This document shows positions 1 through 4,182 of a stretch of DNA of 4,182 bases, piece after piece (the stretch's first letter is position 1; each line of letters begins with the position of its first letter). The DNA comes from a virus (taxonomy: Duplodnaviria > Heunggongvirae > Uroviricota > Caudoviricetes). Position numbers and translations under genes: made by a program. The notes below the pieces were generated by a model. That model was given only the letters and a program-made list of their open reading frames with translations. It did not search any database and had not been told where the DNA came from. Location: IMG/VR virus record IMGVR_UViG_2778261347_000020, one strand, 5' to 3'.

Positions 1-83
1 TCACCTATTGCGGATGGCAAAAACTCGATAAGGCCGTCACCGTTCTGGCGAAAAGCTGATTTTTCCGGCATCAATCCAGATAT

Positions 84-101
84 GGTGATCCCCATATCGG
101 G
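84..101. repeat. Direct repeat copy A (15-bp exact core gatccccatatcggg at 87..101; 17/18 match over 84..101) paired with 853..870
   Basis: Exact 15-mer seen at 87..101 and 856..870 on the same strand; chance of an exact 15-mer recurring in 4 kb is low. Confidence 0.8.
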
Positions 102-139
102 ATAATTACGAAATTTTCGCAGTTTAATAGGTGACCAGA

Positions 140-337
140 ATGACAGAAGCCGAAAATTATGTGCGTGTTGTTGCTGAGGTGATGCGCCGTGATGGTATCC
201 AGCTTAATGATGTGGATATGCGCAACATACGGATCCGCGTTCTTGAAATGCTGGCCTACCGTCGCCGCGTGCAGACGTACAGGGAAAAAGCAAAAATTAC
301 GTACCACTGGAAGAGGCAGGAGCGGTTACGGCGGTAA
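140..337 (+). CDS. Hypothetical small basic protein, 65 aa (MTEAENYVRVVAEVMRRDGIQLND...KRQERLRR); function unknown
   Basis: ATG at 140 preceded by SD-like AGGTGA (129..134) with 5-nt spacer; stop TAA 335..337; first ~45 codons use E. coli-preferred codons (cgt, cgc, ctg, gaa); Arg/Lys-rich C-terminus. The ORF track starts it at GTG 131; I prefer ATG 140 because of the SD spacing. No family recognised. Confidence 0.35.
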   Translation: MTEAENYVRVVAEVMRRDGIQLNDVDMRNIRIRVLEMLAYRRRVQTYREKAKITYHWKRQERLRR

Positions 338-342
338 CTGGT

Positions 343-369
343 TGAACTTAAAGCAAAGCGCAAAATTGC
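343..369. repeat. 27-bp direct repeat copy 1 (tgaacttaaagcaaagcgcaaaattgc)
   Basis: 26/27 identical to 562..588; begins 6 nt after the stop of the 140..337 ORF. Confidence 0.85.
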
Positions 370-561
370 GTTGGCTGGTGGGTGAGTTGCAGATCTGCAA
401 CTCGACCATGAAATTACGGAAACTACCCGTAGTTTGGGTAGTAAGAGTAACACCCAGATTTTGGGGCTTACTCGCGATACCCAAATAAAGGGTATCGGTG
501 GAAGAAATATCGTTTCTCATATGTGAGTACCGAGGGCGGAATTACGCCTTCGGTTACTCGC
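370..561 (+). other. Hairpin-rich 192-bp segment between the 27-bp direct repeats; candidate structured RNA or small cassette (function unknown)
   Basis: Four stem-loops by manual pairing: 384..403 (palindrome), 422..442 (7-bp stem ACTACCC/GGGTAGT, 7-nt loop), 475..497 (8-bp stem CGATACCC/GGGTATCG, 7-nt loop), 529..554 (10-bp stem with one G.U, 6-nt loop). Stems 2 and 3 share the TACCC...GGGTA arms. Strand of any transcript is not established. Confidence 0.3.
384..403. promoter_or_regulatory. 20-bp perfect palindrome gagttgcagatctgcaactc with central GATC; candidate dimeric protein-binding site or 8-bp stem / 4-nt loop hairpin
   Basis: Sequence equals its own reverse complement over 20 bp (checked base by base); centre is a Dam GATC site. 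Confidence 0.5.
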
Positions 562-588
562 TGAACTTAAAGCAAAGCGCAAATTTGC
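562..588. repeat. 27-bp direct repeat copy 2 (tgaacttaaagcaaagcgcaaatttgc), containing a perfect 10-bp palindrome gcaaatttgc (579..588)
   Basis: 26/27 identity to 343..369; single A/T difference makes the internal palindrome perfect in this copy. Confidence 0.85.
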
Positions 589-852
589 ACTCTGGCCTAA
601 CCCGTTGATATTTCCGGCAACCTCAATTTGAGGAGATCGGAAACATCACCCTTCAAATTCTGAATGGTCATAATGACCACGCAGACCATCAAGGCAACCA
701 CAACGAACATCGTTACGGTTGGAGCTTTTACCCCACTGGGGGAAAAGGTACGCACCTGAATCATCATTACCGTGATCAAGGGTATGTAAAGCCCACCAGC
801 CTGATTAACGTTTAACCGGAAAAAAATTCCGGTATGGGGGGAGTGGGTAGGT

Positions 853-870
853 GGGGATCCCCATATCGGG
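853..870. repeat. Direct repeat copy B (15-bp exact core 856..870) paired with 84..101
   Basis: Exact 15-mer gatccccatatcggg; flanks show weaker similarity (ttccgg ... tatgg ... core) suggesting a longer degenerate repeat unit of about 45 bp. Confidence 0.8.
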
Positions 871-932
871 GAACATCCACCAGCTTCATAACGGATGGCC
901 GGAAAATGATAACGGTTAAAGCGTGTTGATCT

Positions 933-989
933 TTGTTCGTGGTTGTTCGATATTGTTCGTGAAACGGTGTAGTTAATGGTGTAGTTAAT
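933..989. promoter_or_regulatory. Iteron-like direct repeats upstream of clpS: TTGTTCG x3 phased at exactly 10 bp (933..939, 943..949, 953..959) and tandem 12-mer GGTGTAGTTAAT x2 (966..977, 978..989)
   Basis: Seen directly in sequence; 10-bp phasing puts the copies on one helix face, typical of regulator binding arrays; embedded in an AT-rich stretch. Binding protein unknown. Confidence 0.35.
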
Positions 990-1052
990 TTCGCTGTTTT
1001 TGACAGAGTTGTTATTTGTAACACAGTGAAAAATAAAGACTAATCAATGAAA

Positions 1053-1061
1053 TGTTATAAA
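1053..1061 (+). promoter_or_regulatory. Candidate extended -10 element (TGtTATAAA) for clpS-clpA transcription
   Basis: TGn + TATAAA about 100 nt upstream of the clpS ATG; no good -35 (acceptable for extended -10 promoters). Purely sequence-based guess. Confidence 0.25.
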
Positions 1062-1162
1062 TGATAGTTATCTATCATGTGGAGTAGATTGGTCAGGCAA
1101 ATAAGCTCTTGTCAGCGGCAGGGCGTTCTGCCGATAACCGTAACCGAAGATGATAACTGACA

Positions 1163-1483
1163 ATGGGTAAAACGAACGACTGGCTGGACTTTGATCAACT
1201 GGCGGAAGAAAAAGTTCGCGACGCGCTAAAACCGCCATCTATGTATAAAGTGATATTAGTCAATGATGATTACACTCCGATGGAGTTTGTTATTGACGTG
1301 TTACAAAAATTCTTTTCTTATGATGTAGAACGTGCAACGCAATTGATGCTCGCTGTTCACTACCAGGGGAAGGCCATTTGCGGAGTCTTTACCGCCGAGG
1401 TTGCAGAAACCAAAGTGGCGATGGTGAACAAGTACGCGAGGGAGAATGAGCATCCATTGCTGTGTACGCTAGAAAAAGCCTGA
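1163..1483 (+). CDS. clpS: ClpS, ATP-dependent Clp protease adaptor protein (N-degron recognition), 106 aa
   Basis: Translation [106 protein letters not shown] matches E. coli ClpS as I recall it; sits 30 bp upstream of clpA as in the canonical operon. Confidence 0.97.
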
Positions 1484-1513
1484 ATGCAGGCATAAAAATT
1501 GGGGGAGGTGCCT

Positions 1514-3790
1514 ATGCTCAATCAAGAACTGGAACTCAGTTTAAATATGGCTTTCGCCAGAGCGCGCGAGCACCGTCATGAGTTTATGACCGTCGAGCAC
1601 TTGTTACTGGCGCTGCTCAGTAACCCATCTGCCCGGGAGGCGCTGGAAGCGTGTTCTGTGGATTTGGTTGCGCTCCGTCAGGAACTGGAAGCCTTTATTG
1701 AACAAACCACACCCGTTCTGCCTGCCAGTGAAGAGGAGCGCGACACACAGCCGACGCTGAGTTTTCAGCGTGTACTGCAACGTGCGGTCTTCCATGTCCA
1801 GTCCTCCGGTCGCAATGAGGTAACCGGTGCAAACGTTCTGGTCGCTATCTTTAGCGAACAGGAGTCGCAGGCGGCATATCTGTTGCGTAAACATGAAGTC
1901 AGCCGTCTCGATGTGGTGAACTTTATCTCTCATGGCACGCGTAAAGACGAGCCGACACAGTCTTCTGATCCTGGCAGCCAGCCAAACAGCGAAGAACAAG
2001 CTGGTGGGGAGGAACGTATGGAGAATTTCACGACGAACCTGAATCAGCTTGCGCGCGTGGGCGGAATCGACCCACTGATTGGTCGTGAGAAGGAGCTGGA
2101 GCGTGCTATTCAGGTTCTCTGCCGTCGCCGTAAAAACAACCCGCTGCTGGTGGGGGAATCTGGTGTCGGTAAAACCGCGATTGCGGAAGGTCTTGCCTGG
2201 CGAATTGTTCAGGGCGATGTGCCGGAAGTGATGGCTGACTGTACGATTTACTCTCTCGATATCGGTTCTCTGTTAGCGGGCACTAAATATCGCGGCGACT
2301 TTGAAAAACGTTTTAAAGCGTTGCTCAAGCAGCTGGAGCAGGACACTAACAGCATCCTGTTTATTGATGAGATCCACACCATTATCGGTGCGGGTGCAGC
2401 GTCTGGTGGCCAGGTCGATGCGGCTAACCTGATCAAACCGTTGCTCTCCAGCGGTAAAATTCGCGTAATTGGTTCGACAACCTATCAGGAGTTCAGCAAC
2501 ATTTTCGAGAAAGACCGTGCTCTGGCGCGTCGCTTCCAGAAAATTGATATTACTGAACCGTCGATCGAAGAAACTGTTCAAATCATCAATGGCCTGAAAC
2601 CGAAGTATGAAGCGCACCACGACGTGCGTTATACCGCAAAAGCGGTGCGTGCAGCGGTAGAGCTGGCGGTGAAATACATTAACGATCGTCATCTGCCGGA
2701 TAAAGCCATTGACGTTATCGACGAAGCGGGCGCTCGCGCACGCCTGATGCCGGTAAGCAAACGCAAGAAAACCGTTAATGTGGCGGATATTGAGTCCGTG
2801 GTGGCCCGTATTGCGCGCATTCCAGAGAAGAGTGTTTCTCAGAGTGACCGCGATACCCTGAAAAACCTCGGCGATCGCCTGAAAATGCTGGTCTTCGGTC
2901 AGGATAAAGCCATTGAGGCGCTGACTGAAGCCATTAAGATGGCGCGTGCAGGTTTAGGTCACGAACATAAACCGGTTGGTTCGTTCCTGTTTGCCGGCCC
3001 TACCGGGGTCGGGAAAACAGAGGTGACGGTACAGCTTTCGAAAGCGTTGGGCATTGAGCTGCTGCGCTTTGATATGTCCGAGTATATGGAACGCCATACC
3101 GTCAGCCGTCTGATTGGTGCGCCTCCGGGATACGTTGGTTTTGATCAGGGAGGTTTGCTGACTGATGCGGTCATCAAGCATCCACATGCGGTGCTGTTGC
3201 TGGACGAAATCGAGAAAGCGCATCCGGACGTGTTCAATATTCTGTTGCAGGTGATGGACAACGGTACGCTGACCGATAACAACGGACGCAAAGCGGACTT
3301 CCGTAACGTGGTGCTGGTGATGACCACCAACGCCGGGGTACGTGAAACTGAGCGTAAATCCATTGGTCTTATCCACCAGGATAACAGCACCGATGCGATG
3401 GAGGAGATCAAGAAGATCTTTACACCGGAATTCCGTAACCGTCTCGACAACATTATCTGGTTTGATCATCTGTCAACCGACGTGATCCATCAGGTGGTGG
3501 ATAAATTCATCGTCGAGTTGCAGGTTCAGCTGGATCAGAAAGGTGTTTCTCTGGAAGTGAGCCAGGAAGCGCGTAACTGGCTGGCCGAGAAAGGTTACGA
3601 CCGGGCAATGGGCGCACGTCCGATGGCGCGTGTCATCCAGGACAACCTGAAAAAACCGCTCGCCAACGAACTGCTGTTTGGTTCGCTGGTGGACGGCGGT
3701 CAGGTCACCGTCGCGCTGGATAAAGAGAAAAATGAGCTGACTTACGGATTCCAGAGTGCACAAAAGCACAAGGCGGAAGCAGCGCATTAA
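1514..3790 (+). CDS. clpA: ClpA, ATP-dependent Clp protease ATP-binding subunit (AAA+ unfoldase, two nucleotide-binding domains), 758 aa
   Basis: ATG at 1514 preceded by SD GGGGGAGG (1501..1508); the ORF track's TTG at 1499 is an upstream in-frame extension, not the likely start. Walker A motifs GESGVGKT (2153..2176, Lys220) and GPTGVGKT (2996..3019, Lys501) are at the positions expected for ClpA D1 and D2. Stop TAA 3788..3790. Confidence 0.98.
2008..2020 (+). promoter_or_regulatory. clpA: Internal SD (GGAGG 2008..2012) plus in-frame ATG (2018..2020, Met169) for the N-terminally truncated ClpA65 isoform
   Basis: Codon 169 of clpA is ATG with a GGAGG 5 nt upstream; internal initiation at Met169 producing a 65-kDa ClpA form is established for E. 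coli clpA. Confidence 0.6.
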
Positions 3791-3815
3791 TCTGATTGTT
3801 AGGTAGGTTGGTCAA

Positions 3816-3852
3816 GTCCGTAATCTCGAAAGAGGTTACGGACTTTTTGTTT
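3816..3852 (+). terminator. Rho-independent terminator of clpA
   Basis: 12-bp stem gtccgtaatctc / gaggttacggac (one G.U) closing a GAAA tetraloop (3828..3831), followed by TTTTTGTTT (3844..3852); 26 nt after the clpA stop. Confidence 0.8.
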
Positions 3853-4001
3853 ATGGGGTGGAGGAGGTTCAGACCCTTTTTTAATGATGATGGTAAGTTG
3901 TTGATAATTAGTGCTGCGGGAAGGTAAGGATAAAAAAGGGTGCTGCAGGAGAATGGGATGGTTTTGCTTTATTAACAACGGGCTAAACGTGTAGTATTTG
4001 A
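3853..4001 (+). promoter_or_regulatory. AT-rich putative CRISPR leader upstream of the first repeat
   Basis: Non-coding, AT-rich, immediately 5' of the first consensus repeat; the degenerate repeat is at the distal end, consistent with this orientation. Promoter elements not confidently identified. Confidence 0.45.
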
Positions 4002-4089
4002 GTTCACTGCCGTACAGGCAGCTTAGAAATCGACGGGGTGCGGTAAAACCTTTGCGAACGCGTTCACTGCCGTACAGACAGATAAAATG
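4002..4089 (+). CRISPR. Type I-F CRISPR mini-array: repeat 1 GTTCACTGCCGTACAGGCAGCTTAGAAA (4002..4029), 32-nt spacer (4030..4061), degenerate terminal repeat GTTCACTGCCGTACAGACAGATAAAATG (4062..4089)
   Basis: Repeat 1 matches the E. coli/Yersinia-subtype I-F 28-nt repeat as I recall it, including the CTGCC-GTACA-GGCAG hairpin bound by Cas6f; spacer length 32 is typical for I-F; second repeat matches the first 16 nt then degenerates. No cas genes in the window. Confidence 0.85.
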
Positions 4090-4091
4090 CG

Positions 4092-4120
4092 AAAAAAAAG
4101 CTCGCACTTTCGTACGAGCT
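4092..4120 (-). terminator. Rho-independent terminator for a minus-strand transcript entering from the right
   Basis: On the minus strand: stem GCTCG..CGAGC with inner 2 bp and a GAAA loop, followed by eight U (complement of A-run 4092..4099). Position fits the terminator of a tRNA gene whose 3' end would lie at about 4133. Confidence 0.6.
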
Positions 4121-4132
4121 CTTCTTTAAATA

Positions 4133-4146
4133 TGGCGGTGAGGGGG
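4133..4146 (-). other. 14-nt stub identical to the 3' end of tRNA-Ser(GGA) (minus strand CCCCCTCACCGCCA); rest of the tRNA absent; candidate att-site core / integration junction
   Basis: TGGCGGTGAGGGGG on + strand is the reverse complement of the acceptor 3' strand, discriminator and CCA of E. coli tRNA-Ser(GGA) as I recall it; the sequence after 4146 has no T-arm (no GTTCGAATC complement). 4134..4152 also folds as a hairpin GGCGGT-gaggggg-ACCGCC. Confidence 0.4.
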
Positions 4147-4182
4147 ACCGCCTGAAATAAATCTGACTTAATCCAGGGGTGT

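Follow-up and report, generated by a model that had tools for sequence, protein, structure and literature searches.

A 9.1-kb satellite island separates cspD from clpS in Escherichia coli and carries a predicted hairpin block near its right end

Gram-negative phage-inducible chromosomal islands (PICIs) have been described as satellites with a four-zone layout and a size of ~10-20 kb (Fillol-Salom 2018; Tommasini 2023). Two of them, EcCIIHE3034 and EcCI18098, have been catalogued at the site "cspD-clpS" with the att core ATGATAGTTAT (Fillol-Salom 2018, ISME J, Table S1), and identical attL and attR sequences for the cspD-clpS site are given in the supplements of a later survey (Tommasini 2023). 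[quoted passage not shown] In this study, we analyzed a stretch of 4,182 bases (hereafter the window), which contains clpS (1163-1483) and clpA (1514-3790) in the same arrangement as in K-12. Positions 1-1060 of the window very probably form the right end of a Gram-negative PICI, 9,118 bp long and inserted between yljB and clpS. The island belongs to a known family of satellites, its attachment site has been catalogued for PICIs, and the kind of event that placed it there has already been described.

Junctions, attachment site and gene content of the island

Alignment with K-12 MG1655 showed 98.5% identity over window positions 1057-4146, and no match was obtained upstream of 1057. The whole window, apart from one base difference, was found in E. 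coli strain 6883 (NZ_CP074998.1; locus L003). The exact block of identity between attL and attR was the 11-bp core ATGATAGTTAT, which flanks the 9,118-bp insert; K-12 positions 4308-4328 are duplicated at both insert ends. The attL copy of the core was located at L003 5943-5953, overlapping the yljB stop codon. Furthermore, the GC content of the island was 0.46 vs 0.52 for clpSA. The attB and the core are the same as those of EcCIIHE3034 and EcCI18098. The tyrosine integrase of the island would have inserted it at this attB, at the end of yljB and 91 bp before clpS. Read from left to right, the window comprises the end of a capsid-homolog gene, a deleted small late gene, a gene-less tail, the attR arm and the 11-bp crossover core. 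The features are listed in Table 1.

Table 1. Features of the window upstream of clpS (window coordinates)
Feature	Position	Strand	Evidence or remark
Major capsid protein gene, 3' end	1..59	+	PGAP annotation in L001 and L003; PF05065; phrog_617/phrog_10
Palindrome CCAGATATGG-N6-CCATATCGGG	76..101		Directly after the capsid stop codon; self-complementary matches
65-aa basic ORF	140..337	+	phrog_1561 match at E=3e-33, profile positions 31-93
Direct repeat, copy 1	332..369	+	89% identical to copy 2; includes hairpin H0 (357-372)
Hairpin cassette (predicted)	378..561	+	H1 378-409, H2 422-442, H3 445-473, H4 475-497, H5 498-522, H6 523-561
Direct repeat, copy 2	551..588	+	Relative L005 has a single repeat copy
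Non-coding mosaic tail	589..884		PerC or Abi accessory genes occupy this position in relatives
attR island-side arm (P arm of attP)	885..1060	+	Conserved in every aligned island at the site
att core ATGATAGTTAT (attR copy)	1061..1071	+	Identical in attL and attR; 91 bp ahead of the clpS ATG
Native chromosomal DNA	1072..1162	+	91 bp before the clpS start codon; 98.5% K-12 identity from 1057 on

The island in strain 6883 encodes a tyrosine integrase of 412 aa with Arm-DNA-bind_3 and Phage_integrase domains, followed on the + strand by a 69-aa AlpA (PF05930 Phage_AlpA, E=1.7e-16). Genes for YlcI-like, Icd-like and DUF4222 proteins were also found, together with a 605-aa primase (D5_N/DUF5906/Pox_D5 domains), a small terminase of the Terminase_2 TerS type (phrog_641, E=5e-44), and a 307-aa HK97-type capsid protein (Pfam PF05065, E=1.3e-6; phrog_617/phrog_10 major head protein). 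No tail, portal, TerL or lysis functions were found among the annotated genes of the 9,118-bp island. The order of int, alpA, the Icd-like and DUF4222 genes, primase, late zone, phrog_1561 gene and tail is shared with EcCIIHE3034, to which int-alpA and the attR arm are 89% and 94% identical, respectively. However, the late zones differ: that of EcCIIHE3034 contains, besides a decoration gene, a capsid gene of the lambda-E type and a 180-aa gene annotated 'terminase small subunit', whereas that of the island contains the Terminase_2 TerS and the short HK97-type capsid protein. In addition, the island lacks the SSB, has a 28-codon deletion in its phrog_1561 gene, and carries a hairpin cassette that is absent from EcCIIHE3034.

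The likeness to EcCICFT073 consists of the four-zone layout and a capsid homolog in the late zone; a terminal phrog_1561 gene was seen in the related locus L008. The combination of a satellite-encoded small terminase with an HK97-fold capsid homolog also resembles SaPI TerS and SaPIbov5 Ccm, and by analogy the TerS and capsid homolog of the island would redirect packaging and capsid size. In the Gram-negative lineage, AlpA takes the place of the SaPI Stl repressor. The TerS and capsid module was detected in 220 of the 5426 complete E. coli genomes, both at cspD-clpS and at one or more other att sites.

Next, the attR arm was inspected for repeated motifs. As observed, KTGTTCG occurs three times with 10-bp spacing (933, 943 and 953), and the motif GGTGTAGTTAAT is doubled at 966 and 978. 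These motifs recur in the same orientation beside int (L003 5964-6047 and 6080/6092), and within 32 kb the doubled GGTGTAGTTAAT was found only at the two island ends. On the upstream side, the doubled motif occupies the interval 77-100 bp from the core centre; on the downstream side, it begins 132 bp from that centre. A similar arrangement, in which two co-oriented copies of a doubled motif flank the core at similar spacing, is present in the attP of helper-embedded PICIs (Tommasini, Mageeney and Williams 2023), although the motif there is TGTGTATTGCA and not GGTGTAGTTAAT. We regard the arm motifs, doubled and tripled, as putative Int and AlpA binding sites. Helper-embedded PICIs reside in prophage genes, in contrast to the island, which occupies a chromosomal intergenic site; three close relatives of the island's tail (L007, L009 and L010), all with the phrog_1561 gene and the hairpin core, are inside the terL or capsid genes of prophages.

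The small late gene, the mosaic tail and the hairpin block

The initial annotation had described a 65-aa basic ORF, and this was recovered as an ATG at 140 running to a stop at 337, with a pI of 10.8 and AGGTGA in front. As judged from an alignment with 16 full-length homologs, this ORF is an in-frame derivative, shortened by 28 codons, of a conserved 93-aa PICI protein (phrog_1561). DNA alignment placed the deletion between short repeats, ACAG(A)AGCCGAAA, and the deleted copy retains its native start codon and Shine-Dalgarno sequence. PGAP called 149-337 a pseudogene in both L001 and L003. In all E. coli PICIs inspected, the phrog_1561 gene closes the late zone. The family comprises 789 homologs, and those with names among the 120 listed are called 'hypothetical' or 'Prophage protein'. 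No Pfam domain was detected in the protein, and a sequence search of the PDB returned no relative. Its AlphaFold model predicted three helices (pLDDT 66), and a Foldseek search of the PDB with this model gave nothing below E=0.2. Furthermore, a scan of species-representative genomes for the protein yielded only Shigella flexneri and one doubtful match.

Downstream of this gene, no gene was annotated by PGAP in the tail (338-884). The long stop-free frames that had been noticed earlier are real, for example one of 148 codons on the minus strand (600-1043); however, the stop-free frames in 183-1043 gave no Pfam match and only one marginal PHROGs match (phrog_32183, E=0.0065, frame 183-485). A scan of 1-1200 for promoters and terminators likewise gave no excess of sites over shuffled sequence. 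Comparison with relatives showed that the tail is mosaic. Blocks 595-695 and 752-826 are common to other PICIs and differ in order, such that block 595-695 precedes the repeat in L008 and EcCIIHE3034. One relative (L005), with a single copy of the repeat and without 370-550, contains a PerC-family gene; another (L006) lacks 559-884; and L009 and L010 have an Abi gene in the tail. The right half of the palindrome behind the capsid gene recurs as a second direct repeat, D2 (83-101 and 852-870, 95% identical), and an O157:H7 relative (L102) has the same palindrome motif at block junctions. These results indicated that 338-884 corresponds to the variable accessory region at the island end, which has no gene in the present copy, and that its blocks have probably been exchanged by recombination at the repeats.

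We then analyzed the hairpin module bracketed by direct repeats. The module had been noted before and was confirmed: the two repeats, 332-369 and 551-588, are 89% identical, and six hairpins are predicted between them. Folding of 325-600 gave a minimum free energy of -113.8 kcal/mol, with z-scores against shuffled sequence of -7.6 for the + strand and -8.5 for the - strand. Across 29 distinct copies, 95.4% of cells were paired, and four pairs had changes on both sides. The core formed by H1-H4 is much more conserved than the surrounding sequence and was found 3' of the phrog_1561 gene in classical, helper-embedded and capsid-forming PICIs. Hairpin H0 occupies the same position in relatives; its loop is A-rich, and its pairing is retained across at least five different stems. 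Part of a 276-bp block containing the element was detected in 852 of the 5426 genomes, and a 25-nt pattern from the hairpin block (23 fixed bases) was found in 85 IMG/VR contigs. With so few species recovered in the scan for the phrog_1561 protein, the sequences are too alike for strong covariation statistics; in this low-diversity sample, the conserved pairing is suggestive. A small ORF within the hairpins (ATG 410, 26 aa) was rejected as coding, as its substitutions were not biased to third codon positions and its length varied among relatives from 13 aa to 66 aa or more, the longest running off the extracted stretch. No Rfam 15 covariance model matched 1-1162 at E ≤ 1, and a literature search for non-coding RNA of PICIs found nothing relevant.

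Based on these observations, we tentatively propose that ~357-561 (H0-H6, ~200 nt) could be an undescribed functional element, either a structured RNA or single-stranded DNA, specific to Escherichia PICIs. It might stabilise or insulate the end of the late transcript, or it might be a cis element required for satellite propagation. As RNA, it would sit at the late transcript's 3' end, as a stabiliser or as an insulator ahead of attP/int and clpS. Such a role, on the + or the - strand, is the leading reading of the element, yet a doubtful one; its basis is the folding energy and a few compensatory changes among close relatives.

The main rival to the RNA reading is that the repeats and hairpins are functionless recombination boundaries, the palindromes being by-products or binding sites for proteins on double-stranded DNA. 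Block order and copy number vary among the relatives, and every join falls at one of two sequences, the 38-bp repeat or the CCMGATATGG-N6-CCATATCGGG palindrome. In addition, a central G-C to A-T change in H1 would be unpairable in a hairpin with a 2-nt loop, which favours symmetry of the duplex DNA. However, conservation of H1-H4 far above its surroundings, the maintained pairing of H0 with its varied stems and A-rich loop, and the extreme folding z-scores argue against mere boundaries. We therefore hold this explanation, too, to be possible and short of probable. The structured element in the tail, which is conserved, is the only part of the island not accounted for in the published descriptions that we consulted.

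Activity, packaging and class of the island

The island might also be a fixed and decaying remnant that has lost excision and packaging, and not an active satellite. The present copy may be partly decayed, because its small late gene is deleted by 28 codons and its tail contains no accessory gene; furthermore, no recognisable cos site was found in the island. However, int, alpA and the primase, terS and capsid genes are all full-length, and the att sites and arm motifs at both ends are intact. The complete 1-1162 stretch was present in 17 of the 5426 complete E. coli genomes. In six listed genomes it was 99.7-100% identical, and these came from human, pig and cattle sources and included O157 and O111:H11 strains, which fits recent spread. 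A remnant without activity is thus an unlikely account of the island.

We also considered whether the hairpin block is the packaging signal (cos or pac) of the island. The block is situated in the late zone near the island end, where cos sites have been reported in other PICIs, and has repeats and palindromes like cosB. However, it follows three different packaging modules, namely, an island-encoded TerS, the 180-aa 'terminase small subunit' gene, and a full HNH-TerS-TerL set, and it showed no DNA similarity to any of the 50,697 phage records. In L008, which is of the EcCICFT073 type, the TerS-like gene has a lambda-type cosN site on either side, and both sites precede the phrog_1561 gene and lie outside the hairpin block. 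This 180-aa 'terminase small subunit' gene, flanked by cosN, is presumably the equivalent of Rpp. With up to 2-3 mismatches allowed, neither the window nor the island contained the lambda-type cosN (GGGCGGCGACCT), in contrast to L008. As both cosN sites of L008 lie elsewhere, the hairpin block was ruled out as a lambda-type cos site, and a packaging function in general is highly unlikely.

With regard to class, the island has a terminal integrase at a PICI att site and a co-oriented alpA downstream of int, and its late zone contains a captured Terminase_2 TerS and an HK97-type capsid protein. The 605-aa D5-type primase is a candidate part of a replication module, and the island's length of 9,118 bp, free of tail and lysis genes, is slightly below the published ~10-20 kb. 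A P4-like satellite or a capsid-forming PICI (cf-PICI), instead of a classical PICI, could be imagined from the P4-alpha-like primase of the D5 type, the Icd-like gene, and the island's own capsid protein and TerS. However, Sid, Psu and Delta were absent from the annotated ORFs and those scanned with Pfam and PHROGs, leaving the alpha-like primase as the sole feature shared with the P4-like set. Portal, protease, connector, TerL and HNH of the cf-PICI set were likewise not found by annotation, Pfam or PHROGs, whereas L011 and L013, true cf-PICIs located at this site or elsewhere, carry HNH, TerS and TerL. The order int-alpA, primase and late zone, together with the att site, matches published classical PICIs, and it is very improbable that the island belongs to either of the other classes.

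Complete temperate prophages contain full structural, lysis and immunity modules and typically measure 30-60 kb. This identity was rejected for the island, which measures 9.1 kb and of which window positions 1-1056 gave no blastn match among the 50,697 phage records.

Fate of cspD and meaning for carriers

The initial annotation had given the K-12 order as macB, cspD on the minus strand, clpS, clpA, serW and infA, and had found no cspD upstream of clpS in the window. Both statements were correct: a tblastn search with K-12 CspD against all 4182 bases gave no match at E ≤ 10, the motifs KWFN and GFGFI are absent from every frame, and the stated order agrees with K-12. The view of 1-1162 as an interval foreign to K-12 and rich in repeats was also upheld, with homology to K-12 beginning only at 1057. 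However, neither of the two explanations then offered survived. The K-12 neighbourhood had not been misstated, and cspD was not replaced in this lineage, since strain 6883 has an intact cspD 8.3 kb upstream of the window start.

This gene is annotated at L003 5498-5722, and its product is 100% identical to K-12 CspD. The starts of cspD and clpS lie 9,440 bp apart in strain 6883 vs 322 bp in K-12, an increase brought about by the insertion. cspD was annotated and intact in every related genome inspected except L001, in which PGAP calls a shorter cold-shock-domain CDS of 174 nt. Loss or replacement of cspD by unrelated DNA can accordingly be dismissed as practically excluded: the gene is undetectable across the 4182-base window, yet a K-12-identical intact copy is present in a strain one base off the window, and other inspected carriers apart from L001 have it intact. 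These results indicated that cspD has been displaced by a 9.1-kb integrative satellite island, neither lost nor replaced, and that the insertion leaves cspD, yljB and clpS intact. The gene is missing from the window because the window begins inside the island, whose insertion point lies between cspD/yljB and clpS. A break in synteny within a short window can thus reflect displacement instead of loss.

The island arm (885-1060) was found at a coverage of at least 80% in 367 of the 5426 complete E. coli genomes, so that ~7% of them carry it at the cspD-clpS site. The insertion splits the 322-bp divergent control region of cspD and clpS, and clpS keeps 91 bp of native upstream DNA. As the island splits this region, regulation of clpSA or cspD could be altered in carriers. 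If functional, the hairpin element would be a cis or RNA component common to three PICI types that current satellite descriptions do not mention.

Occupants of the cspD-clpS site and related islands

We compared the window with Escherichia coli strain 6883 and observed a sole mismatch, at position 2796, where clpA codon 428 is TCC (Ser) in the window and TTC (Phe) in strain 6883. Given this single difference, the window derives from a very close relative of strain 6883 or from a corrected version of its assembly.

The same cspD-clpS site is occupied by other elements. In strain 2012C-4227 (L013, 1-3770), it holds an island with HNH, TerS, and TerL at its tail end, as in capsid-forming PICIs, and in a further locus (L012, 1-3692), it holds a PICI of the EcCICFT073 type. 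Therefore, these occupants indicated that one attachment site is common to different satellite types. In the O157 strain AR-0427 (L001, 11498-11671), PGAP calls cspD at only 174 nt, as a 'cold shock domain-containing protein', and a hypothetical ORF overlaps this call; the short length may reflect either the choice of start site or a true lesion.

The island tail, comprising the phrog_1561 gene and the hairpin core, was also observed in islands located within prophage genes, namely the large-terminase gene in L007 (1-957 and 11375-12505) and capsid genes in L009 (10181-10969) and L010 (4181-4969). Such insertions match the arrangement described in 2023 for helper-embedded PICIs. Furthermore, islands in four IMG/VR loci (L021, L032, L049, and L071) carry the hairpin core twice, ~434 bp apart, the two copies being preceded by differing upstream hairpins.

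The doubled attP arm motif

A doubled 12-bp motif, GGTGTAGTTAAT, was found on both arms around the att core. A different doubled motif has been described as unique to helper-embedded PICIs (Tommasini, Mageeney and Williams 2023). The spacing of the two motifs is similar, suggesting a general attP architecture for the integrase group of this island.

Coordinates of the arm motif and of features downstream of clpA
Feature	Position	Strand	Location	Source
GGTGTAGTTAAT, doubled	window 966-989		one side of att core	
GGTGTAGTTAAT, doubled	strain 6883 (L003) 6080-6103		other side of att core	
CRISPR-DR4 repeat 1	window 4002-4029		clpA-serW interval	Rfam
CRISPR-DR4 repeat 2	window 4062-4089		clpA-serW interval	Rfam
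serW tRNA gene, final 14 nt (3' end)	window 4133-4146	minus		

Repeats and a second island downstream of clpA

The two CRISPR-DR4 repeats, which are separated by a single 32-nt spacer, scored 50 bits (first, above the Rfam gathering score) and 20 bits (second, below it). Because 20-mers of both repeats also occur in K-12, the pair looks like an orphan array remnant belonging to the locus.

Beyond the serW end, the sequence is no longer K-12-like up to position 4182. In strain 6883, a second island lies next to this end, containing a tyrosine integrase, IS1 and IS66 copies, YfjI, and a TOTE-type primase; thus, clpS-clpA is flanked on both sides by integrative elements.
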